From Candidatus Saccharimonadota bacterium (lineage in GTDB: Bacteria; Bacteroidota; Bacteroidia; Cytophagales; Amoebophilaceae): a stretch of DNA of 32,000 nt. Location: assembly GCF_003351905.1 (NCBI RefSeq), contig NZ_CP022339.1:300001-332000 (forward strand), written 5' to 3'. This document shows, in pieces, positions 4,144-18,678 of the stretch (positions within the stretch are counted from its first letter, which is position 1; each line of letters begins with the position of its first letter). The notes beneath the pieces are model-generated. The model was not told the DNA's origin. It was given only the letters and a program-made list of their open reading frames with translations, and searched no databases. The position numbers and the translations under genes are program-made.

Positions 4144-5397
4144 CTATTGGTTTATTACCTCTTTAAAATAACCAGACTGGTCAACTGTAAAGTGTGTATA
4201 AACAACTTCTCTAAAATTATCTTGCTCATCTTTTTGATGTACTTGAACAATTGCCTCTGTTATATTAAGTTTTGCAGCATCACAGGTTATCCCTATCAGG
4301 ATTTTTTCACTACATGAACCATATTTAATACTGTAATCTTTACTGTGTATTTGTGTTAAAGCCTCCAGCGCTGGTCTATCTATTTTTAACTCAAAGATAT
4401 AGACAGCTCTTTGGTCGTTTCTATGGTCCTCCATAACGATATCTGTGCGGCCTATGCCACTGTCGGATTCAGCACTAGTCTGCATATCATGCGTTGCATG
4501 AAAAACACCATTTAGAAATAAATATAAAGCCCTTTGAAAACTCCTCTCTGTTTTATCTAGAAAACGATAGCCTGCTTTAGCTAAGCAATCACTTCGAATA
4601 TAGTTAAGAAAGACAGACCACTTTTTATTTCTTAAAGTATTAAGAATCGAAGTGCTATATTGTTTACCTGTTTCCTCCTGGACTTCGTCCATAATCTTAA
4701 TTAAGGTTGACTTTAAAGCAGATCTTACCTCTTCATTGGGAAACTTTAAATAGTAGTCCGTTGCGTTTTTATCTTCTCGTATGTCCTCTTTAAATCCATT
4801 AGGATCTAGGGTAAGATAACCTGTTTGGTACATTAAAGGGAGTAATGGTATCTTGGAAAGAGAGCCTGCTAAATTTTCAAAATCCAGCTTATTGATTGCA
4901 AGACTGGACTTATTCCAAGCGATTGTAAACCTATTGATATCATTTCTTATTTGTTGTAGTAAGATGGCAGGATTACCAGAGTTGGACCAGTAATTACCAA
5001 ATGCTTTATCTCGAAAAAATTTCAATATAGAGTCTGGATTATACATCCGCTTGATACCCTTATTTCGACTAAAACAGTAGCCGTTATAATAATCTTTTAA
5101 CTCTTGTTTTAATTGTTCGTCTGTATAGCTTTCTCCTTTGTACCAATTTTCCCTTAGATTTATTATGACTGTATTAATATATGTGTGTTTGTCATTAAAG
5201 AATAACTTTTCAATATCCTTGTCTGTATAGCCCAACATCTCTGCATAATCCTCATGCAATGATATGTCATTAGCCGAGTTTGCCCCTGAGGTAAGTCCAG
5301 ATAGGTGAAATTTAGTTACGCCGGTGACAAAGATAAATTTGCAGTCCTTCTGACTGCCTTTTAAAACTTTAAAAAATGAACTAAGGACAGCAAGCAC
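4144..5397 (-). pseudogene. AAA-ATPase-like / PD-(D/E)XK (PDDEXK_9-type) protein, N-terminally truncated paralogue of 10400..12175
   Basis: Collinear with the C-terminal ~420 aa of the 591-aa paralogue (YNGY, NPDSIL/NPWSII, YQTGYLT/FAGYLT, ESDSGIGRTDIVM...IFELK nuclease core). It lacks the RPRRWGKT N-terminal region. Its GTG 'start' abuts an IS66 fragment at ~5430. Confidence 0.75.
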
Positions 5398-5434: not shown

Positions 5435-6172
5435 GTGAACGAGGCCGGTCAACCTGGTCACGCAGGTGCTGCTCGTGGTAAGATGGTAGCAGATGAAGTT
5501 ATCGAGTTGTCTATTTCAGGTTCATGTTCCTGTGGTGGTCATGTAGCGATATCTTCCAAGCCTTATATTCATCAAAAAGTAGATTTACCCGATATTAAGC
5601 CGCATGTAATCAGTTATCATATGGAGCATGGTCGCTGTAGAAAATGCGGGAAACGCTACACTGCTAGACTTCCTAAGGGTGTTACCTCAGATGCCTTTGG
5701 TCCTAAAATCAAATCAGTGATAGACGCTTTGACTGGCCTTTATAAAAACTCTAAACGAGAGGTAGCTTGTATATTACAAGATATCTTTAATCTAGATATC
5801 AGTCTGGGTAGTATCTCTAATAGCGAGGCTAGGGTAGCTTCAAAATGCAAAACAGCTTACCAAGCTATAGAAGAAACCATTAAGCAAAGTAAAGTACTGC
5901 ATATAGACGAAACGGGGCACAATAATAATGGTAAACTAAATTGGGGTTGGATGTTTACTAACGCTATGGCCAGCCTCCTTAAGCTCACTACTTCCAGAAG
6001 CCGAAAAGTTTTAGAAAGTAGTGGACTGAATCCTAAAGATCACATTGTGATCAGTGATAGATACGCAGTTTACAATTACTTTCCACCCACCCATAGGCAA
6101 CTTTGTTGGTCACATATAGCTAGAGATTTTGAGAGGTTTTCCCATAGTTTCCATAGAGGTGTTAAAGTATAA
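5435..6172 (+). pseudogene. IS66-family transposase fragment (central part, truncated at both ends)
   Basis: GQPGHAG..., a zinc-finger region (CSCGG...GRCRKCGK) and a DDE core (LHIDETG...WGWMF...ISDRYAVYN...CWSHIARDF). About 75% aa identity to the copy at 9115..9945. The N-terminal coiled coil and the C-terminal third are missing. Confidence 0.85.
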
Positions 6173-6427: not shown

Positions 6428-6800
6428 ATTATAGGCATCAAGTTAAGGGTAAAACAGCATAAAAACTATGTAAAAGGTTGCGCTCTAAGGCCATTAAAAG
6501 TATAAATATCATTTGTAAAAAAGATTCTGGCATACTAAATTTAACGTACAGGTAGATTAACTTTTTAATTCCTGAGAGAGTAGACGTAAGTGTTACCACT
6601 TACGTCCCTCGTTAGAACCATCATCGTGCAAATTTCTTGCAATGGGCTCAAGACAAATCTATTCACTTAACCGGTTTATATTAGATCTAGAAAAGTCTAT
6701 GGATAACTCTCGCTTTTGGAAATGGCTTAGCTAATAGAAATAGCTGAAACTTTTTCCAGTTAAACGATTTCCTTTGACTCCTCTTCCTTTGACTCCTCCG

Positions 6801-7087: not shown

Positions 7088-7170
7088 TTAAGCGATTATC
7101 GCATTAAGCTGTTTGTAAGGATTTAGTTTTTGTTGTTTCCAAGTTAGATACAAAGAGATGATTTTTTCCA
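7088..7170 (-). pseudogene. IS66 transposase 3' exon (last 27 codons) downstream of group II intron 1
   Basis: Joined to 9115, the frame reads ...SERGNRF|LEKIISLYLTWKQQKLNPYKQLNAIIA*, an IS66-type C-terminus. A homologous uninterrupted tail is found at 15284-15430. Confidence 0.7.
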
Positions 7171-9114
7171 GTAGGGTCGAGAAATGGCGCGGTAGTCTTA
7201 CCCCCGTTTCCATCTCCCGCCTCGTCGAACGTAGCGAAGGGATTTCCCCTACTACGCTCTCCTAATAACTTCTTAACAAAGCCTATGGCCTATCATGCTG
7301 TGGTTGCTTTCGAAGGTTTATGATAACGTATCTGATAATCGTTATATAACTTTATCTTTTCGTATAAATCTCTTCTACTCCACCTTCCCCAGCCGAAACC
7401 TTTTCTTTTCCGAGCACGCATTAAATGTCGCCTCACTTTCTTTTCGACCCAGTGTTTAATATAGCCAAAACACCGGCGTGAATTACCAATCCTAAAGTAA
7501 TTAATCCAGCCGCGTAATATCGGGTTGATCAGTCTTATAACTCTACCAACTGGGTGCGATATGTGGTTACGGAATATTACTTTTAGTTTCGATAACAGCG
7601 CTGATCGGGCTTTCATTCTAGGCGTTTCCAGTATGCTGTTTTTGCCTCGTCTTGTCAAGACTCTTCTAAAATCGAAGCCTAGGAAACTAAAGGTGCCTCC
7701 TTGTTTTAGATCAACAAATCTAGTCTTTTCTTCATTCAAGGTTACCTTTATTTTAGACAGTTCCTGTCTTAGCCTTTTATGAATACCTAATTCTAGCCAC
7801 TTCCATTTTATGTGGTCATCAATTAGGATGAGCAAATCATCAGCCCACCTAACGTACTCCATGTGGTCGCGCCCATCGATTTGGAAGCTCACTTGTTTAG
7901 CCTTTTCTAGCATTGTATCAACCTCATTTAGGTAAATGTTGCTTAAAAGGGGTGATAAGGGGCCGCCTTGGCTTATGCCACGCTTGCCTCCTGCTTTGAC
8001 TATTAGTTTCAATAGCCCCATCACATCTCGATCATTTATACGCCTGGATACCTTTTTAAATAGTTCTGCATGACCTATCGTGTCAAAGTAAGAACTTAGG
8101 TCCACATCTATTACTTTGGTCTTTGATGTAAGGGTAGCTATTGCCACTGCCTCTATAGCTTCTGCTGCCTTGCGTTTAGGCCGGTAGCCATAAGAGCCTG
8201 GTTGAAAGTCTGCTTCAAATATGGCTTCCATTATGAGTTTTAGTGCACCCTCTACTACCCTATCTTTGATAGTGGCTATAGAAAGCTTTCTCATTTTATG
8301 GCCATTGTCCTTGGGAATCATTACATTCCTTTTCCTTGAAGGGAAGTAAGTCTTTGATTGAAGTTCTGATCTTATGTTTGCTAGAAATTCGTCCAAACCT
8401 GAAGCCTCTATCTTCTCAAAGGTTACTCCGTCTATGCCGGGTGAGCCATTGTTTTGTTTGGCTTGTTTATAGGCTGTTCTTAATGTTTCTAGTTTACATA
8501 CATGAACATAGATTCCCCAAAACCTCCATGACTTGTCAGCTTTAGCTTTGATATATATTTTCCTTCTCAGATCTTGTAATGTTATTGGAGTCTTTATCAT
8601 ACTTCCTTTACTTCACTTGTTGTTGGAAAAATGTTATTAGCAGGGTGCCTTCGCTCCACAGCCATTACGCTGCTTCATCACTACTACACACCCGTCCGCG
8701 ATCCTCTCATCTTTCGACTCACTTCCTGGTGCTGCCAGTTATAGAGTCTACTATGCTCCAGAAGTTTTCTTCCTGGGATAAGGAGGACTTCTCCAGTCAC
8801 TTAGTATGACCTTATGATCATGCTGCCACTATCACCCCGCCGAAGTGTTGAGTCGTTTCAGTTAGTTTTCGACTTAACATGCTGCCTTCACTAAGATTCC
8901 ATTAGTTCGGCCTTCGGGGCTAGGTACTTTCGAGGCTATCTATGTGTTCGCTTTCGCTGCGGCCTGATCATCTGCACTTACCCTTTAGATAAGTCTGTCA
9001 ATAGGTTTCAGCATCTTGATTTCTCGTGATACTGCTATTCGAGCTGTAGGCTGCTAACTTTTTGGCCTAGTAGGACTTCCACCTACTGGTACATACTAGT
9101 CTCTCTGGACACAC
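7171..9114 (-). mobile_element. group II intron 1 (full length, ~1.94 kb, no endonuclease domain in the IEP)
   Basis: On the minus strand the 5' end is GTGTG (9114-9110). Domain V is GAGCGTAGTAGGGGAAATCCCTTCGCTACGTTC (7259-7227). The 3' end is ...CCTAC at 7171. An RT/maturase ORF lies inside. These boundaries restore the host IS66 frame. Confidence 0.85.
7293..8600 (-). CDS. ltrA: group II intron reverse transcriptase/maturase
   Basis: 435 aa. RT blocks are present (GSPGIDGVTFEKI, RKLSIATIKDRVV, FQPGSYGYRPKR, DVDLSSYFDTI, GISQGGPLSPLLSNIYL, YVRWADDLLI) together with the maturase X motif LRGWINYF. Confidence 0.93.
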   Translation of the reverse strand: MIKTPITLQDLRRKIYIKAKADKSWRFWGIYVHVCKLETLRTAYKQAKQNNGSPGIDGVTFEKIEASGLDEFLANIRSELQSKTYFPSRKRNVMIPKDNGHKMRKLSIATIKDRVVEGALKLIMEAIFEADFQPGSYGYRPKRKAAEAIEAVAIATLTSKTKVIDVDLSSYFDTIGHAELFKKVSRRINDRDVMGLLKLIVKAGGKRGISQGGPLSPLLSNIYLNEVDTMLEKAKQVSFQIDGRDHMEYVRWADDLLILIDDHIKWKWLELGIHKRLRQELSKIKVTLNEEKTRFVDLKQGGTFSFLGFDFRRVLTRRGKNSILETPRMKARSALLSKLKVIFRNHISHPVGRVIRLINPILRGWINYFRIGNSRRCFGYIKHWVEKKVRRHLMRARKRKGFGWGRWSRRDLYEKIKLYNDYQIRYHKPSKATTA

Positions 9115-9945
9115 GGAATCTATTACCTCTTTCGGATTGTGTGAAGTAAGAATTTTTACGATATACCACGTAATGCCTAATTTGTCTCTCAGCCAAGTTA
9201 TTGGTCAATGGAACATTGACTGGATCTTGGTAAAATCTCCATAGCATAGGCTCTGCCCGCATTATATTTTTAGCCACACGACTAGCTTGTGCAGCACGTG
9301 GTATCCTGGAAATAGCTTTTAAGCCATACCAGGTCCGTTTACGCAATTTTCTAATGCGTCTTAAAAACGTAACCAACCCCATAGATTGATTCAAGAAAGA
9401 TCGATGCAAGGCAAATAGCTCGCTAGCTATTTGCTTTAAGTAAAAGCCTAATGCTTTAACATCACTGTGCCAACTATGAGCAAACCTTTCAAAATCTCTA
9501 GCTATATGTGACCAACATAATTGTCGATTAGTGCTGGGAAAATAATTATAAACTGCATATCGGTCAGTGACAACAATGTGGTCTCTAGGATTTAAGCCAC
9601 TACTTTCTAAAACTTTGCGACTTCTTGAATGGGTTAACTTAAGTAGACTAGCCATAGGGTTGGTCATCATCCAGGCCCAATTTCGTTTATCGCTATTAAA
9701 GTGGGAGGTCTCATCTATGTGTACCAATTTACTTTCTCTGATCGTTGCTTCTATAGCTTGGTAAGCTTCTTGGCACTTTGCAGCTACTCTAGCTTGGCTG
9801 TTAGATACACTACCTAAACTGATATCTACGTTAAAAATATCTTTTAATATATAAGCTACTTCCCTTTTAGAGTTTTTATAAAAGGCTGTTAAGGAACTAA
9901 TTACCGATTTGATTTTAGGGCCAAAAGTATCTCTTGTAACCCCTT
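9115..9945 (-). pseudogene. IS66-family transposase fragment (5' exon of the intron-interrupted copy; N-terminus replaced by IS3 sequence)
   Basis: Part of ORF 9083..10036. Runs from GVTRDTFGPKIK through the DDE core to LAERQIRHYVVYRKNSYFTQSERGNRF. The last 11 codons of that ORF (RVSRETSMYQ*) are read-through into the intron. Confidence 0.85.
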
Positions 9946-10275
9946 CAAGACTTTTCTTACTTAATAAATCCAAGCTCTTTGGCTTTCCCACCGCCCAATC
10001 TCGCTCAACTGTAGCCTTACCTACAGGCTTTAGCAAAGTTCATCATTTTGATGCTTAAGTGCACTAATTTCGTCTCTATACACACTAACAACCTTTGGTG
10101 GATCAAAGGCTACTGAAGCATTTTCTAAAAACTGACGTTTCCAATTTTGAATGGTTTTACTAGTTACTCCATATTTGGATGATAACTAGACTAACGTTAA
10201 CTCTTCTTTTAGTAAATCTAATACTATTTTAGTCTTTTCTTCCGAGCTAAAATTTCTAAGCTTATTTCTGCCCAT
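9946..10275 (-). pseudogene. IS3-family OrfA (HTH transposase) pseudogene
   Basis: From the ATG at 10275 the frame reads MGRNKLRNFSSEEKTKIVLDLLKEELTLV*LSSKYGVTSKTIQNWKRQFLENAS...ISALKHQNDEL. There is an in-frame TAG at codon 30 (10188-10186) and a frameshift near 10040 before the leucine-zipper tail GKATVERDWAVGKPKSLDL. Confidence 0.7.
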
Positions 10276-10326
10276 CTGATATCTATATTTTAAAACTCTA
10301 AAAATAAAATCTACAGAAAATAAAGT

Positions 10327-10361
10327 AAAAGATTTTTGTCCGATTTTTTCAGTCCATTATA
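10327..10361. repeat. IS3-family terminal inverted repeat (end of the element carrying the OrfA pseudogene)
   Basis: On the minus strand it reads TGAAAAAATCGGACAAAAATC, with the TG... start and TGGACA-like core typical of IS3 IRs. It is near-identical to 31889-31923. Confidence 0.6.
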
Positions 10362-10399
10362 AAACCCTAACCTAACATATTATGGTCTGTATTATTAGC

Positions 10400-12175
10400 C
10401 TACTCATACCCGTCTTCCTGGACATATTTATTCGTTAGCATTACTTTACCAGGATTTTTACCAACCAGATCATAACTGGCATAAGCAGCTAGAACTGATT
10501 TCCCAGAAAAAGCAATACCGACTTCTACTACTTCTTGGACATGCGGATAGTGTAATATTTCAGTATGATAGGCTTGATCTTGTATTTGCGATAAGGCAAG
10601 TTTAGCTGCAGTTTCTAGTTCTTCTTCTTTACGCACATGCTTAAATTCCAATAGGAGCGCTTTGGGGCCATCTTTAGGAATAATTAATACATCATAACGA
10701 CCTAGACCGCTCTCTCTATTGGACCGTACATAATGGGTTCTACCCAAGCTTGCCAACATAGCCAGTACAAAACCATGGTAAAATCCTTCTGATTTTCTAG
10801 AAAATTGTGTGTCAAAACAACTAGCACTTTGGCGTAAAAAAAAGCTTAGTTCTTCCACAAAAAGAGATACTGTTCCAGTTACTAAATGTTCTAAAAAAGA
10901 AGTATAAACTCCTTGGTCAACAAACTTACTGCTCAACCATTCTTTAAAGAACCTATTGTAGAGTCTACGTATTTCATTATTGGGAACCTTAACTATACAA
11001 TCGTATAAATCACTATCTAAACTCAGGTTACTTGTTTCAAAGGTTAAATAGCCAGCAAATAAGAGTAAGCTCCATAAAGCAGTTTCATTCGTACCTAACA
11101 AATCAAAAGCAAGATGCTTATCTACAGGAACCGTTAAAGCTTCTCCTTGCATTAATTGTTCGAATTGTTCTTTAAGACTTTCGTTAGAAGAAAGAATCAA
11201 CTGCTTGATTAAATCATTATTACCCGTATTAACCCAATAGACATCAAAACGACCCGATCTATTGATACAAGAAATAATAGACCATGGATTATACATCACC
11301 AAGTTGCCTACTTTATACCCATTGTACCAATTTTTTACTTCATCCATGGAAGTACTAAGATTCGTTTCTTGAAATAAAGAGGAAACTTCGGCTTCGCTAA
11401 AGCCAAAGTGACTACTATATTCTTCATCTAGCAAAGTATAGGTCTCTAGGTTATTCAACCCAGATAACATACTATCCTTTGAAACCCTTAATATACCGGT
11501 TAATACGCCTCGTTCTAGTGTAGTATTGTCTTTTAAAGCAGCACTAAACAGGTTACGCATAAATACGACCATAGCATCCAAATACGGTTGATTACCATAT
11601 GCCTTATTCAATGGTGTATCGTACTCATCTATAAGGATATACACCTTTTGGCCATGATAATTAAAAAGACAAGTACTGAGCAATTCTAAAGATTTTTCTA
11701 GCTGTCGTTGATTAGCCATCCTATTTAAAATTGCACTAAATTCATATCTTTGATCCGAATTAAGTTTATCACTTTCAAGTAAATACTCGAATAATCCATA
11801 AAGCTTCTTTATTAATAAATAAACGGAATCATATGCCCCTTGAAAACTATCTGCATTTATATCCTTAAAACTGATCATAATGACAGGGTACTTTCCTTGA
11901 TGCTCCTTAATGTATTTACCACCTTCTAGCTTACCAATCGCTAAATCATTAAATAAGCCTGTTGTACTTACCCCATTTACTTCTGAAGCAAAAAAATGGT
12001 GCAACATAGACATATTGAGCGTCTTGCCCCAACGACGAGGACGAGTAATTAGGGTAACTTCATCACCCTTGCTCAGGAAATCAACAAGCATGGATGTCTT
12101 ATCACAAAAGAGGTAATCGTTAGATACCAACTTATGAAAATTACTAACCCCTAGTGGTAATTTAGGTTTGTTCAT
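10400..12175 (-). CDS. AAA-ATPase-like N-terminal domain fused to PD-(D/E)XK nuclease (PDDEXK_9-type) protein
   Basis: 591 aa. The N-terminus is LPLGVSNFHKLVSNDYLFCDKT...ITRPRRWGKTLNMSML (Walker-A-like) with YILIDEYDTP (Walker-B-like). The C-terminus is ESGLGRYDVLIIP...ALLLEFK, a PD-(D/E)XK core. Confidence 0.85.
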   Translation of the reverse strand: MNKPKLPLGVSNFHKLVSNDYLFCDKTSMLVDFLSKGDEVTLITRPRRWGKTLNMSMLHHFFASEVNGVSTTGLFNDLAIGKLEGGKYIKEHQGKYPVIMISFKDINADSFQGAYDSVYLLIKKLYGLFEYLLESDKLNSDQRYEFSAILNRMANQRQLEKSLELLSTCLFNYHGQKVYILIDEYDTPLNKAYGNQPYLDAMVVFMRNLFSAALKDNTTLERGVLTGILRVSKDSMLSGLNNLETYTLLDEEYSSHFGFSEAEVSSLFQETNLSTSMDEVKNWYNGYKVGNLVMYNPWSIISCINRSGRFDVYWVNTGNNDLIKQLILSSNESLKEQFEQLMQGEALTVPVDKHLAFDLLGTNETALWSLLLFAGYLTFETSNLSLDSDLYDCIVKVPNNEIRRLYNRFFKEWLSSKFVDQGVYTSFLEHLVTGTVSLFVEELSFFLRQSASCFDTQFSRKSEGFYHGFVLAMLASLGRTHYVRSNRESGLGRYDVLIIPKDGPKALLLEFKHVRKEEELETAAKLALSQIQDQAYHTEILHYPHVQEVVEVGIAFSGKSVLAAYASYDLVGKNPGKVMLTNKYVQEDGYE

Positions 12176-12357
12176 ATGAGATTAATTGGATTTAGCTTTT
12201 GTATCATATAAATGTACATATAATGTAGAATTTTTCTCTGCAGTTTCCAGCTCATTTCTCCTACCAGTTGCAAATGGTTTAGCTGGTCTAAGTGATACGG
12301 CTCGTTTTCAGTTTCCTGGTTCAGATTTCCTATTTACGCTACTATCTGCTTCCTTAT

Positions 12358-12739
12358 ATGGAAAAACATTTGTTAACCACATCACAAAGAAAACCAACTA
12401 GAACATGTTCACTGAATTTGAGCGAGATAATGACCATTATTATTACGTTTCACATAATTGGTTTTAAAAATTTTAAGACTTATTATCTTCATTTACAACA
12501 GTTCCATGCTAATGAGTTTAGTAAACTAGTAAGTTACAATAGGTTCATAGAATTCATTCTAAGAGCCCTGGTTCCTTTATTTTTTTTCACACAAAATCTG
12601 CCTAAAAAAGAAACAGGCTATTACTTTATGGATTCCACGGCCATCAAGGTTTGTAATATCAAAAGAGCCTATTCTCACAAGGTTTTTAAATCAATTGCTA
12701 CTAAAGGTAAAACCAGCATCGGTTGGTTTTTGGGCTTCA
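12358..12739 (+). pseudogene. IS982-family transposase, N-terminal part interrupted by group II intron 2
   Basis: LSEIMTIIITFH..GFKNFKTYY...VSYNRFIEF...FMDSTAIKVCNIKRAYSHKVFKSIATKGKTSIGWFLGF fits the IS982 pattern up to GWFxGF(KLH). Intron sequence starts at 12740. No downstream exon is present in the window. Confidence 0.75.
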
Positions 12740-13625
12740 GTGTGCCGCAGATGTATGCAGTGGAGTTAGAAATGTAAATAACTTCTTTAAATACAGTACA
12801 GCTATGGAAGAGATGAAGGCAGGCCCTTCAGAGTCTGTTTACAGGAGCTGGCTCTAAATCACCTCAAGCGGCTGTGGTAAAAAGCCATGGTCGTGAGCGT
12901 TGAGGAAAAGATGTTGGCTTTGAATGGCATCAGATGTGAATTAAAGAGACGAACGCAAGTAAACCGTTGAAGACGTGTCGAAAAGAACTCGGATGATATC
13001 AAAACCAGCATTTTGATCCGTTCTGGGAGGAGTCCTCTAGCAACCTGTTTACTGAGAGGATGGTATCCGGCATTTAGATGGCGTGACTTTAATTTTGGCT
13101 TTTCCATGGAACTGCGGGAACCTGTCATATTCATGTTAAGGGAGACTCCCAAGGGCAAACTTGTTTCAAGGGATAGAGTACTGATGGAATATACAGGGAC
13201 GGATCAGCCCGTAGTAGTGAAGAAGTTTCTGTAATGGAAATGGAGCAAAGGGGCTGACTTATTCAACGATATTAATAGATCAACCATTGTACGATGGGAG
13301 GAACCTATGAATAAAGTAAAGTCGTATGAAATATCAAAGCATGTGGTGATGCAAGCCTATCAAAACATAAAGGCTAATGCAGGCGCAGCTGGTGTAGATG
13401 GTAAAACGATTGAAGAATTTGAAAGAAATCTTAAAGGGAATCTTTATAAGATCTGGAATCGGATGTCATCTGGGAGCTACTTTCCCCCACCTGTTAAAGC
13501 GGTACCTATACCAAAGAAACAAGGAGGAGAAAGAATACTAGGCGTTCCTACTGTAATGGATAGAATTGCCCAAGCAGTTGCTAAGATCATGTTAGAACCG
13601 AACTTGGAACCCCCTCTGGGGGTTA
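12740..13625 (+). mobile_element. group II intron 2, 3'-truncated (5' RNA domains plus first ~105 codons of the RT)
   Basis: The 5' end is GTGTGCCGCAG at 12740. A structured, ORF-poor leader of ~570 nt follows, then an RT N-terminus. RT blocks beyond RT2, domain V and the 3' end are all missing. The end coordinate is approximate. Confidence 0.65.
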
Positions 13626-13636
13626 TTAATAGGTAG
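13307..13636 (+). pseudogene. group II intron reverse transcriptase, N-terminal fragment
   Basis: ISKHVVMQAYQNIKANAGAAGVDGKTIEEFE...YFPPPVKAVPIPKKQGGERILGVPTVMDRIAQ covers RT0-RT2. It stops before the FxxxSYGFRP block. Confidence 0.8.
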
Positions 13637-13900
13637 TAACCCATTTTTAGTAGGCAAAGCAATGCTAAAAGGTGAATTTCTATTGAATTTTGTAGGCTTT
13701 TTTAACTTGATGGTATCTTCTTTTATAGAGGGTTTATGCGTATTAGGAAAGAAAAATGGTATACAAGAGATACCTACAAGCATCAAAAAAGCACATGCCT
13801 TATATCCTTGTCTTAAAGGCAAATATTCAAAACAGATAAATCCTAATGCAACAACACCCCAGAGAAACAACAGCCATTTGCCACTGGAAAACTTTTCCAT
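13592..13900 (-). CDS. hypothetical small membrane protein (two hydrophobic helices); 3' end runs into intron-2 sequence
   Basis: Supported only by the ORF and hydrophobic segments (WLLFLWGVVALGFICF, ACAFLMLVGISCIPFFF). No family was recognised. Confidence 0.25.
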   Translation of the reverse strand: MEKFSSGKWLLFLWGVVALGFICFEYLPLRQGYKACAFLMLVGISCIPFFFPNTHKPSIKEDTIKLKKPTKFNRNSPFSIALPTKNGLLPINNPQRGFQVRF

Positions 13901-13932
13901 TCTATTTTTCAGCCCATCCCCAGCAAAGAAGC

Positions 13933-14070
13933 TTATTCAACCTTAATCGTGTTTAGATCCAATAATGATTTACAAGACTCTGATAAATAATGGCTGAGAA
14001 ACTCCTGGGCAGCTATTGGATCGGCAAGGATTCTTTTAACTAGTCCATCATGTTTTAATCTTTCTGTCAT
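13933..14070 (-). pseudogene. Rpn/YhgA-like (Transposase_31, PD-(D/E)XK) N-terminal fragment, 45 codons
   Basis: MTERLKHDGLVKRILADPIAAQEFLSHYLSESCKSLLDLNTIKVE* matches the conserved Rpn N-terminus (HDxxFKxxFxDPxxAxxFLxxxLP...LDLxTL). It then stops. Confidence 0.5.
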
Positions 14071-14355
14071 AAAGATAGCTTACGAAGAAGCATTAAATAG
14101 TTGAAGATGATAAGCTACGAAATAAATAAGGAAGTCCTATTTCTGAATAAAATACTAAGTTAGTTATCCATCGGATATAAAGCTGGCTGCTTTTTTTTGA
14201 TAAGGTATACAAAAGGATATCCTTTAGAGGAACAGCTACCCTATAAGAAGAGCCTATACCCAGGAGTTCTATATTAACTATTATTTTTCTTATGTCCAGT
14301 GCAATGGTCCAGAAGTGTTCTTTGGTAAGATTTATTTCCTTAAACCAATAGAAAA

Positions 14356-14523
14356 ATGAATAAATTTAAACAATATGGTGTGGTCTGTTTATGCTTGTTA
14401 ATTCCTATAACCTCTTGGGCAAGTATAGGATCTTCTATAAAATCAGGTTTAAATAAAATGCTTCCTAACTCAGTTAAAAAGTGGATTCCTGGTCTAGCTC
14501 CAGAAGAAAAAATGGTTCATTGA
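14356..14523 (+). pseudogene. signal-peptide-bearing 5' piece of the ankyrin-repeat gene (separated from it by a homopolymer frameshift)
   Basis: MNKFKQYGVVCLCLLIPITSWASIGSS... ends 4 codons after an A6 run (14507-14512). The +1 frame is open from 14498 and reads ...WFIDNHRASLEILDKEGFTPLHWAAL into ORF 14618..15094. Confidence 0.65.
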
Positions 14524-14617
14524 TAACCACAGAGCATCATTAGAGATATTAGATAAAGAGGGCTTTACCCCTTTACATTGGGCAGCGTTAAAACTTAACG
14601 TAGAAGATAAGGGTGAG

Positions 14618-15094
14618 ATGCAGCTTTTTCACCGGTTAATTAATGCAATAGGTGATGTCAACGTAACAGATAAATCGGAACGTATCGCTCTTTATCTTGC
14701 ATCAGAAGAAAATCTCCCATTAGTAGTCAAGGTCTTGATTGAAGATGGAAGGGCTGATCCAAATAAACAAACTAATTATGGAACTGCTCCTCTTCATGTT
14801 GCATCGAAGCTAGGTTATTCAGCAGTAGTTGAATTATTACTGAGTGCTGAAAATATTGATGTCAATATAAAAAATAAATATGGCTCTACCCCCCTTCATC
14901 TAGCATCTAAATATGGGCACGAAGAGGTAGTCCAACTTTTAATTAAGAATCTAAGGACTAAGGTAGATGAAAAAGACAAAAGTGGAAAGACCGCTCTTGA
15001 CTTAGCCAGCAACCTAGAAGTAGTAAAAATCTTAAAGCGAGCCAATAGAAAACGAAAACTTTACAAAATTGAAGCCCCTAGAGCTAGGCTTTAA
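14618..15094 (+). CDS. ankyrin-repeat protein (ORF-track portion; the ANK frame is open from 14498)
   Basis: Repeated ANK consensus (GTAPLHVASKLGYSAVVELLL, GSTPLHLASKYGHEEVVQLLI, GKTALDLAS). A further GFTPLHWAAL repeat lies upstream of the annotated Met. Confidence 0.88.
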   Translation: MQLFHRLINAIGDVNVTDKSERIALYLASEENLPLVVKVLIEDGRADPNKQTNYGTAPLHVASKLGYSAVVELLLSAENIDVNIKNKYGSTPLHLASKYGHEEVVQLLIKNLRTKVDEKDKSGKTALDLASNLEVVKILKRANRKRKLYKIEAPRARL

Positions 15095-15283
15095 AATATA
15101 CTTTTCTTTCTACTTTTTTGATTTTTTAGAAATTTTTACCTATACTTGCACAATCCAGTCTGGGAACATTATCCAGACTTATACTAGCTTAGCATAAAGG
15201 GCTATGCAAAGCATAATCAGCTGCCACTTTTTAATATTTCATGATCTATAGCAAGTGGCTAATGTATCTTGATTTGTTTCCGT

Positions 15284-15430
15284 TCACGCCTGTGGCAGGA
15301 ATTTGATTTCGGTTTTGGAGTGTGTTTTTTCCTGGATTATTTTTTTGAGTTCTTTGAAAGGATTTAGGTTTTGCTGTTTTGCAGTTAGGTACAAAGAGAT
15401 AACTCGTTCTAACATACTGAAGGCATTCAA
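15284..15430 (-). pseudogene. IS66-family transposase C-terminal remnant (48 codons)
   Basis: The minus frame reads LNAFSMLERVISLYLTAKQQNLNPFKELKKIIQEKTHSKTEIKFLPQA*. It is homologous to the spliced tail RFLEKIISLYLTWKQQKLNPYKQL at 7088-7170. Nucleotide similarity covers 15358-15407 vs 7115-7163. Confidence 0.55.
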
Positions 15431-15447
15431 TTAAATTAAATTACCCA

Positions 15448-15933
15448 ATGTACCATCACTTAAATTTAGTAAGAAATAGATTTTATAACAAGGATTTATA
15501 CTCTTTTTTGTACTGTCTATTTTTGGCATGCTTTATATACGGTTGTAATAGCATAGTCAAGTCTAATTACGCAGAAGGAACACCTAACTCGCCCTATTCT
15601 GAGCGATCTTTTAATGATTCAAACCACACTACAACATTAGAATATAAAAATCCTAATCTTCATACTGCAATCGTAGAGCAGAATGTTAGTGCTATAAAAA
15701 AGTGTTTTCTTGCCCCTGATAGCATACCTGAATTGGAACCTTCCATTTTGTATACAAATCTAATTTCAATGTTAGAAATGTTAGAAACGCAAGATAACAA
15801 CGGAAATACTCCGTTTCATCTTTTATCTGTACCCAATAAAGGGTATAAAAAACTTTTTAAATGGATCATAAAATACCTAAAATACTTAGATTCTTATGTT
15901 GTATCTAAAAATAAAAAAGATATAAAGGATGGC
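15448..15933 (+). CDS. putative lipoprotein with one ANK-like motif; 3' end runs into group II intron 3
   Basis: Signal/lipobox-like LFLACFIYGCNS and the motif DNNGNTPFHLLS. The ORF-track tail VPRRPPF* is intron sequence. Confidence 0.45.
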
Positions 15934-17928
15934 GTGCCACGAAGGCCTCCTTTCTAGTGGGTGCAAGTCCCACCCTGGCAATAGGCCTGTTGGCCAGGTA
16001 GCGAGGAGTGCATCTATAAAGAGTAATTTTTGTAGATGAAGCCACTCGACGACGGCTCTGTACAAGGAGCTACGCAAACTGCGGGCCGTACGCAAGGAAC
16101 CTATATGTAGCGCCGTGAAGGTCTTACCAGAGAAATCTGGGAATTGGAGATGCTGAGCCTCTCGTCTGGTGGGCGAAAGCTGTAAAGTGACGGAAAGATA
16201 ACAGGTCAATAACCGTCACTTATCTCCCGGCGTAGCAGGGGCGGCACGTAGGAAAGAAAGGAGGAGAAACGTGGGAGATCCTGCACGGTCTTTAAGTTCC
16301 AAGAGTAAGGAAGGATATAAGGCGCAAGTCGAAGTTCGTTCCGATGCTGTGCAGGAAGTCGGGAAGATAGTAGTAGTGAAGATGGCAAGGACAACAAAAC
16401 CTTACCGGAGCGAAGGATCTTCAGTTTCGTCATGTTTTCAAAACAGGGAAAGATACCATGATTCCGCAAGGTAACCACATGGCACAAAGCGTCCGAGAAC
16501 TGCAGCGAGAACTTTATCGATCTGCTAAGTCTAATCCTAAACGCAGCTTCTACACCCTTCATGACAAAATATATAGATTGGACGTACTGGTCTGTTCATG
16601 GAAACAGGTTTGTGCAAATCACGGGGCACCAGGCATAGATGGAATAACAATAGAACAAATCAAAGAACAAGGGGAAGAAGCGTTTCTTGGACAAGTTCAA
16701 AAAGAACTGGAATCAGGAAGCTACCGAAGCAATAAGACAAAGCGCGTGGAAATACCCAAACCGAAAGGAGGAATAAGAATCTTGGGAGTGCCCACGATTA
16801 AGGACCGCTTAGTACAAACTGCAACCCGTCTTGTTATAGAGCCAATTTTTGAAGCAGACTTCCAAGAATGCTCATTTGGGTTTCGACCTAAACGATCCGC
16901 AGTCCATGCAAGTCTATCAATATATAAATGGCTTAATTACGGGCTCACCCAAGTTTTAGATATTGATTTGAAGCGATACTTTGACTCAATCCCACACGAT
17001 AAGCTTATGAAAGTCATTCAAAAGCGAATCAGTGATAGGTATGTTCTAAAGTTAATACAAGCCTGGCTTCGCTCAGGAGTCCTTAAAGGCGAAGAAGTTG
17101 CTACTCGACAAGGATCCCCTCAAGGGTCCCCCATTTCGCCCTTACTTTCTAATATATACCTGAATCTGCTAGACACAGTATGGGTCAAGCGGATGACCGA
17201 AAGGAATGGGTGGAATGCACAGATTGTCCGCTATGCGGACGATCTCGTGATAGTGTCGAATAAACCGGTAGAGAAGATTTTGGGTATTTTATGTGGGTAT
17301 CTGCAACGCTTGGGCCTTTCGATCAATGAAGAAAAGAGTCGAATGACCACGGCCGAAGAAGGTTTCAATTTCTTAGGGTATGCCTTTAAAAGGGGATACT
17401 CGCCAAGATATCAGAAACCCGTTACCCATATGTATCCTACACCTGATGCAATCAAGCGGATTATTAAGAAAGTCACGCAATTGACCTATCGGAACCGGTT
17501 GCACGAAAGTGTTGAAACTATTGTTAAAGACTTAAACGCATCCTTACTGGGGTGGACGGAGTATTACCGTCACACGGCCAGTTCTAGGAGATTTAGGAAA
17601 GTACAAGGGCATGCAAACAGGCGTCTGAGAAGATTTATCATGAAAAAGAAAGGGAGTAGGAAGAACGGGTATAAGGAACTCCCCGACGAGAAGCTCCACA
17701 AAGTGTACAAATTAGTCAATGTAGGAGCTTATCGGGTGCGATACAGATGGACGTAATGCAGACGAAGAAGACGATCCGTGCGCCGTATGAGGGAAAACCT
17801 CACGTACGGTGCGACGGGGGGGTGCTGGAAACGGGAAAGAGAGATTGGGTTATTTAGGCACGAAATCGGAAACGATGGACACGGATAAACCTGGTCCTAT
17901 ACTTCACCGCGCCAGTGCTCTACTCTAC
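15934..17928 (+). mobile_element. group II intron 3 (full length, ~2.0 kb)
   Basis: The 5' end is GTGCCACGAAGG...AGTGGGTGCAAGTCCCAC, parallel to intron 1's AGTAGGTGGAAGTCCTAC. Domain V is at ~17779-17813 (GCGCCGTATGAGGGAAAACCTCACGTACGGTGCG). The 3' terminus ACCGCGCCAGTGCTCTACTCTAC (to 17928) parallels intron 1's ACCGCGCCATTTCTCGACCCTAC. Boundaries are good to +/- a few nt. Confidence 0.8.
16458..17756 (+). CDS. ltrA: group II intron reverse transcriptase/maturase
   Basis: 432 aa. RT blocks are present (GAPGIDGITIEQI, RILGVPTIKDRLVQ, FQECSFGFRPKRS, DIDLKRYFDSIPH, GSPQGSPISPLLSNIYL, IVRYADDLVI) together with the maturase X motif LLGWTEYY. Confidence 0.93.
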   Translation: MIPQGNHMAQSVRELQRELYRSAKSNPKRSFYTLHDKIYRLDVLVCSWKQVCANHGAPGIDGITIEQIKEQGEEAFLGQVQKELESGSYRSNKTKRVEIPKPKGGIRILGVPTIKDRLVQTATRLVIEPIFEADFQECSFGFRPKRSAVHASLSIYKWLNYGLTQVLDIDLKRYFDSIPHDKLMKVIQKRISDRYVLKLIQAWLRSGVLKGEEVATRQGSPQGSPISPLLSNIYLNLLDTVWVKRMTERNGWNAQIVRYADDLVIVSNKPVEKILGILCGYLQRLGLSINEEKSRMTTAEEGFNFLGYAFKRGYSPRYQKPVTHMYPTPDAIKRIIKKVTQLTYRNRLHESVETIVKDLNASLLGWTEYYRHTASSRRFRKVQGHANRRLRRFIMKKKGSRKNGYKELPDEKLHKVYKLVNVGAYRVRYRWT

Positions 17929-18608
17929 CTTTTAAACTAGCTCGCTATGGACAGGAAAGGGGATTGAAAGCTAATTACAGCTATTATATTACAACAGATC
18001 GGCTTAAAAGGCAACAACAAAGAAGAGAAGAGCTGGTAGCTACATTAAGCAATGAAAAGAAACGGTTACACCATAGCCAGACTAATATAGATAAAGAAAG
18101 CATAGAAAGGCATATCGATTTTTTAGAAAAAGAAATAAAAATTATTGATAAAGCGTTAAATAAAACCATAACTACTGATAAGGATCTAGACGAAAAGGCT
18201 AATATACTAGAAACCATTCCAGGAATCGGGAAATGTTTAGCCACTAAATTAGTCAGTTTTTTACCTGAATTAGGTGATAGAAGCTACAGTAGTAATCAAC
18301 TATCAGCTTTAGTAGGTATAGCACCATATGCGGCTGATAGTGGGAAAAAACAGGGAAAAAGATTTATTAGGGGAGGAAGGAAAATACCACGAGATGCACT
18401 GTATATGGCTGTATTAGCAGGGAAAAAGTGGTTCCTATATTTAAAAGAATGCTATGATAGATTAGTAGGTAAATATAAGCCTAAAAAAGTGGCTATCGTA
18501 GCATGTATGAGGAAGCTCCTAGAGCTGGCGCATAAGCTTATACAACAAAAAAGAAGCTTCGTCAAAAGTATCAAAAACGAGTACAAAATGACTAAAAAAC
18601 TTGCATAG
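17929..18608 (+). pseudogene. IS110-family transposase, C-terminal (Transposase_20) half only
   Basis: LARYGQ..., LETIPGIGKCLATKLVSFLPELGD, SSNQLSALVGIAPYAADSGKKQGKRFIRGGRKIPRDALYMA, KPKKVAIVACMRKLLE. The frame is open back to the intron 3' end. The N-terminal DEDD domain is absent. Confidence 0.82.
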
Positions 18609-18618
18609 TAAGATAATA

Positions 18619-18650
18619 GCTTTTTTCTTGATAAAAAAGTGGACAAAAAA
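18619..18650. repeat. solo IS3-type terminal repeat
   Basis: gcttttttcttgataaaaaagtggacaaaaaa closely matches 31834-31864 and is the inverted counterpart of 10331-10351 and 31893-31913. Confidence 0.55.
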
Positions 18651-18678
18651 TCAAGCCCTCGGTAAAAAGTCGCTGAAA

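Follow-up and report, generated by a model that had tools for sequence, protein, structure and literature searches.

Group II introns nested in insertion sequence (IS) elements are a classic bacterial pattern, and the textbook case is RmInt1 of Sinorhizobium meliloti in ISRm2011-2, with an intron-encoded protein (IEP) that has no endonuclease domain, a sense-oriented homing site in the transposase gene of the IS, and spread with and between IS copies accompanied by occasional ectopic insertions. Wolbachia and other facultative endosymbionts hold several intron lineages and many IS elements in reduced genomes, mostly as decayed copies inside mobile DNA. We analyzed a 32,000-nt stretch (the window) of the genome of the insect symbiont Cardinium cSfur (1,103,593 bp), where a region of about 11 kb (7171-17928) very probably holds three bacterial group II introns, I1, I2 and I3, which belong to three separate lineages and lie in sense orientation, each at a lineage-specific site inside a transposase gene. 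Like the other endosymbionts, cSfur combines several intron lineages and IS elements with a reduced, host-restricted genome. I1 and I3 resemble RmInt1 in lacking an endonuclease domain and in their sense orientation in transposase genes, and I3 also in having an ectopic insertion; they differ in that the hosts here are IS66, IS982 and IS110, the IEPs are only distantly related, and I3 has a GCGUG start and a CGC triad. The window introns are thus a tidy but ordinary case of a familiar pattern and leave the known workings of group II introns unchanged; what is added here is a 2-nt correction of the I3 boundary with a GC-type 5′ end, an ectopic I3 junction, a link to Caedibacter and a caveat about the assembly.

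The original prediction of three group II introns within 11 kb was confirmed by RNA models and by reverse transcriptase (RT)/maturase open reading frames (ORFs). Rfam models were run on the window at the gathering threshold and Pfam domains were searched on its ORFs; between 7 and 18 kb, Rfam gave four group II intron matches and no other RNA family. We take the RTs to be group II intron maturases because of the GIIM domain, the covariance-model matches to intron RNA domains and the exact in-frame exon junctions. The chance that they are instead retron, diversity-generating retroelement (DGR) or other non-intron RTs lying near transposases by accident is negligible, since RVT_1 and GIIM domains are flanked by intron RNA domains, and retron and Drt RTs were far weaker matches in the Protein Data Bank (PDB). 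The three lineages are regarded as separate because their IEPs are only 34-40% identical (IEP1/IEP3, 33.6%; IEP2 fragment/IEP3, 40%; IEP2 fragment/IEP1, 36%), their Rfam D1-D4 families differ, and so do their distributions in relatives. The claim that they are distinct lineages and not recent copies therefore stands between the three introns, but fails within I3, which has six near-identical copies in the assembly.

Group IIC introns insert downstream of terminator or attC hairpins and have no intron-binding site 2 (IBS2). The best solved matches for IEP1 and IEP3 were the GsI-IIC RT (6.5e-40 and 8.6e-62, respectively) and the Eubacterium rectale group IIC ribonucleoprotein (PDB 6AR1, 7UIM), which assigns no class, as the PDB covers only three intron classes. 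Both proteins (435 aa in I1, 432 aa in I3) are compact RTs with a maturase (X) domain and had no HNH match in Pfam, that is, no DNA-binding/endonuclease (D/En) domain, as in endonuclease-minus lineages such as classes C, D, E and F. I3 further shares with these group IIC systems the CGC triad of D5 and a short (about 4 nt) conserved 5′-exon match, but its sites are conserved codons within genes and have an extra GAY at -13..-11; the triad and the structural match are no more than suggestive of group IIC.

Another Cardinium genome, that of cOegib, is on record as containing group II introns (PMC9769881). The genome paper of cSfur is silent on introns; among the genes it regards as acquired horizontally are six homologous "transposases" (PMC6147030), and judged by the count, which fits, these may be the six I3/IS110 loci. 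We found no description of an IS110-homing intron lineage in the literature searched. The annotation given here corrects a published symbiont genome record in which introns go unmentioned.

Introns in IS66 and IS982

I1 is a full-length intron of 1944 nt on the minus strand (7171..9114), delimited by Rfam, by D5/D6 read by eye and by the ends of homologue alignments. It begins with GUGUG at 9114 and ends with ..CCCUAC at 7171. The D1-D4 part was recognized by group-II-D1D4-6 (RF02005) at 9079..8825 (minus strand) with 81.7 bits against a threshold of 49, and a D5-like hairpin starting GAGCGUAGU.. was read by eye at about 7227-7259. Alignments with homologues from other Cardinium genomes start and end precisely at the terminal bases of the intron (9114 and 7171), and I1 occurs as a single copy in cSfur. 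Its IEP (7293..8600, minus strand) matched RVT_1 (3.5e-27) and GIIM (1.7e-19).

The placement of I1 in an IS66 element was correctly predicted. Exon 1 of the transposase (9115..10036, minus strand) is truncated at its N-terminus and lies in an ORF (10036..9083) that matched DDE_Tnp_IS66 (1e-30); exon 2 (7088..7170, minus strand) reads LEKIISLYLTWKQQKLNPYKQLNAIIA followed by a stop and is in frame with exon 1 once I1 is removed, giving the join ..SERGNRF|LEKIISLYL... The empty site is seen in uninterrupted IS66 paralogues at genome positions 165683 and 487727, which read ..DRFLKRVISLYL.. (..DRFLKRVISL..) and ..NKFLEEVLS... I1 is thus complete with an intact ORF, yet its host IS66 has decayed and lost its N-terminus. 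Directly upstream of the truncated IS66 gene we also observed an IS3-type orfA-like frame with internal stops (10040-10280, minus strand).

I2 (12740..~13625, plus strand) was expected to be a 3′-truncated intron placed exactly at the GWFxGF|KLH position of an IS982 transposase, and an uninterrupted paralogue in cSfur reading GWFYGFKLH confirmed this. The 5′ part of the IS982-family transposase (12292..12739, plus strand) lies in an ORF (12292-12777) that matched DDE_Tnp_1_3 (2.1e-15), and I2 starts with GUGUG at 12740, after GWFLGF and the first base of the K codon. What remains is a 5′ stump of D1-D3 and the first ~104 RT codons, as seen by Rfam and by tblastn of the RT fragment: group-II-D1D4-2 matched at 12815-12934 (plus strand) with 105.5 bits, and in the RT ORF (13307-~13620) the likeness to other IEPs stops at about residue 104, near 13620. 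Neither D5/D6 (Rfam) nor GIIM (Pfam) was found in I2, which falls short of a complete six-domain RNA with its IEP, and its 3′ part and the remainder of its IS982 are absent. I2 is therefore a dead stump, a truncated remnant of a group II intron and not a functional member. A second copy of the I2 type, internally deleted, lies at genome position 231421, where it interrupts an IS982 paralogue of 81% identity at the same site.

I3, its 5′ end and its IS110 target

I3 is a full-length intron on the plus strand (15932..17928), supported by Rfam, homologue alignment, an empty site and the reading frame. The original prediction was right about its position and its 3′ end, but its 5′ end is moved here from 15934 to 15932, giving 1997 nt. 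The 5′ end reads GCGUGCC and the 3′ end ..CUCUAC. Rfam matched group-II-D1D4-4 (RF02003) at 15955-16095 with 87.4 bits and the Intron_gpII D5/D6 model (RF00029) at 17778-17928 with 45.7 bits, both on the plus strand, so that D1-D4, D5/D6 and a 5′ end of the GUGYG type, with U2 replaced by C in GCGUG, are all present. An alignment of six sequences gave a consensus fold with 38 covarying pairs. A complementarity scan for exon-binding sequence (EBS)/IBS pairing proposed CUUAUC (against GAUAAG at -13..-8) and CAUCUA, and both were rejected, as they lie inside conserved helices of that fold. The IEP (16458..17756, plus strand) has an RT with the YADD motif and a maturase domain (RVT_1, 3.1e-37; GIIM, 1.5e-14).

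The start at 15932 was adopted because of the empty site, the homologue columns, the IS110 frame and the similar GCGUGCC start of a further intron of this genome, I4. An intron-less IS110 paralogue reads ..GTAGATGCGCAACTT.. (KVDAQL), and the occupied sites read ..GATG|GCGTGCC.. at the 5′ junction and ..CTCTAC|CCAAACTT.. at the 3′ junction. In the closest homologues the alignment begins at G[C/U]G[C/U]GCCACGAAGG; in the 5′ columns of I3, those from a Paracaedibacteraceae metagenome-assembled genome (MAG) and a Bacillota MAG have the canonical GUGUG, and others GCGCG. Splicing from 15932 would give an intact IS110 ORF of 325 aa at the loci that we call type B, and splicing from 15934 would break the frame, which led us to reject the earlier coordinate.

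In cSfur, the IS110 5′ halves in front of I3 are of two unrelated types, A (..KTDKVD|A) and B (..KTDKHD|A), and on the chromosome and plasmids of Caedibacter acanthamoebae, as well as in a related MAG, the lineage of I3 occupies three further IS110 genes at ..KNDxxD|A. A tblastn search for IS110 halves against 56 related loci found IS110 only in L021 and L039, the flanks being short and divergent, and Pfam on chosen flanks succeeded: in the five different host genes (2 cSfur, 3 Caedibacter/Paracaedibacteraceae), the DEDD_Tnp_IS110 match (PF01548) ends within <=1 residue of profile position 98. The seven known sites of the lineage share GAY at -13..-11, GATG at -4..-1 and C at +1. Taken together, these alignments indicate that, in genes of IS110-family recombinases, the I3 lineage homes to the codons for the catalytic motif K(T/N)D..DA, suggesting a natural intron that tracks a catalytic motif, which could be of minor further interest as IS110 recombinases are now tools. 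Each intron was thus found in a single IS family (I1 in IS66, I2 in IS982, I3 in five IS110 genes), except for two ectopic sites of the I3 lineage, one in an RluA-like pseudouridine synthase gene of Caedibacter and the other in our window.

All three introns do lie in sense orientation in or beside transposase genes, and I3 is followed by an IS110 C-terminal half, as predicted; this half is of type B (17929..18619, plus strand), runs from FKLARYGQERG.. to a stop at 18608 and matched Transposase_20 (1.1e-14, in 17964-18608). The upstream "exon" of the window copy, however, is not IS110 but the first 161 codons of a lipoprotein-like ORF (15448..15931, plus strand), cut at ..KKDIKD. This ORF had no Pfam match; its N-terminus resembles Cardinium proteins of 330-600 aa, and a search of 47 relatives for an uninterrupted orthologue returned only N-terminal matches to paralogues. 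The junction between the lipoprotein ORF and I3 has no independent assembly on record. Only the last 4-6 nt of this 5′ flank are shared with the other five copies. Its closing bases, GATATAAAGGATG, mimic the IS110 homing site: 14/19 positions match the type-B site, which equals the match between type A and type B. Since the flank matches the homing site in this way and the GAY-N6-GATG motif is rare (1.5e-4 per genome position), the junction appears to be a genuine ectopic insertion at a lookalike site and not the end of a random deletion.

By analogy with the family, the excised intron RNA with its own protein would reverse-splice into DNA that matches its exon-binding sequences and would then be copied into DNA. 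Priming for I1 and I3 is probably from DNA ends at replication forks, because their proteins have no endonuclease domain. In sense orientation the intron would be spliced out of the transposase transcript, and therefore the IS would stay usable and carry the intron along. The window copy of I3 would have entered the lookalike site in a lipoprotein/ankyrin-family gene, and its IS110 3′ half would derive from homologous recombination between introns (deletion) or from mis-joining in the assembly.

Copies of I3 and the assembly

The assembly contains six full copies of I3, of which five are identical and the sixth differs by one mismatch, as well as a 3′ fragment of 221 nt. The same 722 bp, made up of the type-B IS110 3′ half and the start of an abundant repeat, follow all six. 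An intron-less IS110 copy (genome 571237-570247) shows which 3′ half naturally belongs with the type-A 5′ half, namely that of type A, and both type-A 5′ halves with I3 nevertheless continue into the type-B 3′ half, forming 5′-A|I3|3′-B chimeras (n = 2). Orphan type-A 3′ halves lie at genome positions 1052049 and 119339; the first follows 221 nt of intron, and the second has no intron before it. The assembly rests on Illumina reads, including mate pairs of up to 40 kb, that were processed by SOAPdenovo2 (k = 67), SSPACE and GapFiller, with no long reads (PMC6147030).

Several points weigh against reading the region as three introns of separate lineages at lineage-specific sites. At I1, RF00029 gave no match even at E<=1, and because the Rfam D5/D6 model gives no score there, D5 and D6 of this intron rest on reading by eye. 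The RT motif of I1 (7820-7850, minus strand) is WADD in place of the YADD usual in group II RTs, so its IEP may be inactive. For I3, the sole candidate for EBS1 is a loop with a conserved CGUC, to which no pairing is assigned. Lastly, the 100% identity of the I3 copies, their uniform IS110 3′ half, the 5′-A|I3|3′-B chimeras and the two orphan type-A 3′ halves could be products of gap filling.

One explanation of the chimeric loci is that they are real, and that homologous recombination between direct 2-kb copies of the intron deleted the intervening DNA, the introns serving as deletion substrates in a shrinking genome. The joining of type-A 5′ halves to a 3′ half that is not their natural partner fits this idea, as do the absence of reciprocal products (5′-B|I3|3′-A) from the assembly and the cut of the lipoprotein ORF exactly at the intron boundary, at a match to the homing motif. 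Mis-assembly predicts the same pattern, though, and three independent deletions that all keep the type-B 3′ half would be a coincidence; we consider recombination a real possibility but a doubtful one.

The converse explanation, to which we give somewhat less than an even chance, is that the six identical copies, the single IS110 3′ half behind three kinds of 5′ flank and the order of lipoprotein ORF, intron and IS110 in the window are artefacts, and that the real genome has 5′-A|I3|3′-A and 5′-B|I3|3′-B loci and one plain ectopic insertion that keeps its own 3′ exon. Reads of this type are unable to resolve a 2.7-kb repeat, and the orphan type-A 3′ halves equal the chimeras in number (two each). 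Yet mate-pair libraries of up to 40 kb served for scaffolding, every 5′ junction is short enough for a single read to span and must therefore be real, and no junction of I3 with the 3′ part of the lipoprotein gene exists anywhere in the assembly. We prefer neither the biological nor the assembly explanation of the I3 flanks, and because the assembly is short-read and gap-filled, linkage over long distances around I3 is insecure and the identity of the copies is weak evidence of recent activity.

It is an even question whether the copy number of I3 grew mainly because its IS110 carrier transposed or was copied in segmental duplications, and not through retrohoming of the intron. Spread with the IS would account for the three type-B copies that share the whole element (about 650 bp upstream and 722 bp downstream), for the two of these that lie in a duplication identical over >3 kb, and for the IS110 ends that abut a repeat of dozens of copies, a typical IS110 target. 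Against it, the 5′ junctions are of three unrelated kinds (type A, type B and the lipoprotein ORF), which implies a minimum of three separate intron insertions, or two and a recombination, and the relatives in Caedibacter occupy several different sites too.

Combining these elements, we advance tentatively, as a possibility we would not bet on, that I3 represents a cross-phylum, endonuclease-less intron lineage that parasitises the genes of IS110 "bridge RNA" recombinases at K(T/N)D..DA DNA and is tolerant of GC at the 5′ splice site, while its copies of 2 kb, as recombination substrates, would fuse halves of different IS110 elements and host genes and so aid deletions in a shrinking symbiont genome.

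Two observations concern the surroundings of the IS110 copies. The type-B IS110/I3 loci at genome 582078-584742 and 857325-859989 are identical for >3 kb beyond the IS, which represents either a large segmental duplication or a collapsed or duplicated region of the assembly. The final ~30 nt of the window IS110 3′ half (17929..18619), the ~34 nt next to its right end (18620-18653) and ~40 nt at the type-B left end belong to a short repeat with >80 BLAST matches genome-wide, and IS110 seems to be inserted in a repeat similar to MITEs (miniature transposable elements with inverted repeats).

Distribution of the lineages and neighbouring features

Of 16 other Cardinium genomes, 11 contain fragments of I1, which are also found in further genera of the family, and at least two of the Cardinium genomes (G022 and G017) have it in the same IS66 flank. 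Relatives of I2, at about 70% identity, occur in 8 of the 16, with the same IS982 flank in G017, in G019 and at cSfur 231421. I3 was not detected at the DNA level in 47 related Amoebophilaceae genomes; its DNA is 83% identical to an intron of the alphaproteobacterium Caedibacter acanthamoebae, and its IEP is 84-85% identical to IEPs of that species and of the Paracaedibacteraceae MAG. These distributions suggest a long-standing presence of I1 and I2 in the Amoebophilaceae and support a recent cross-phylum import of I3, with its nearest relative in Caedibacter.

The introns of Caedibacter acanthamoebae (CP008936-CP008939) and the Paracaedibacteraceae MAG sit at the same IS110 DEDD codon as I3, have a GCGYG-type start (GUGUG in the MAG) and include one ectopic insertion. 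Their hosts are Alphaproteobacteria and not Bacteroidota, and since the host IS110 genes are not similar at the DNA level, I3 seems to have moved without its IS. The link with Caedibacter is a tangible example of genes passing between intracellular bacteria that are unrelated, and the reduced genome of cSfur still carries an old layer of retroelements (I1 and I2) and a recently imported one (I3). Given these different histories, the view that mobile DNA was colonised repeatedly in a reduced 1.1-Mb genome was a fair one.

Genome-wide, we counted about 14 intron loci and at least five lineages, the lineages all sense-oriented in transposase-type genes: IS66 for I1, IS982 for I2 (including the second copy at 231421), IS110 for I3, IS256 for I4, and Rpn/YhgA for I5, which combines RVT_N, RT, X and HNH domains in a broken ORF. 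Each lineage keeps one site in one transposase family, a case of parasites on parasites. I4 (genome 805388-~807420, minus strand, locus L076) has an intact 435-aa IEP with a YCDD motif and splits an IS256/Mutator transposase at VIH|QIRNS; its GCGUGCC start applies when the exon frame is respected. A second cluster, 72-75 kb before the window (genome 224602-236655), holds three introns in 12 kb, namely I5 in the Rpn/YhgA gene, an I2-type remnant in IS982 and a copy of I3 in IS110, and 9 of the about 14 loci lie between 224 and 340 kb of the genome. In the window, one more group II intron has left a weak remnant that resembles D5/D6 and has no RT alongside (6575..6651, minus strand; RF00029, 26.6 bits against a threshold of 40, E 0.0017 in a whole-genome search).

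Two more IS66 fragments were observed in the window, one at 5435-6172 (plus strand) with zf-IS66 and the N-terminal part of the DDE domain, and the other at 15322-15400 (minus strand), a C-terminal piece 76% identical to exon 2 of the I1 host; with that host, the island therefore holds at least three IS66 remnants. Amid the IS remnants there are also a 591-aa protein with AAA-ATPase_like and PDDEXK_9 domains (10400-12175, minus strand) and a shorter paralogue of it without the ATPase part (4144-5397, minus strand).

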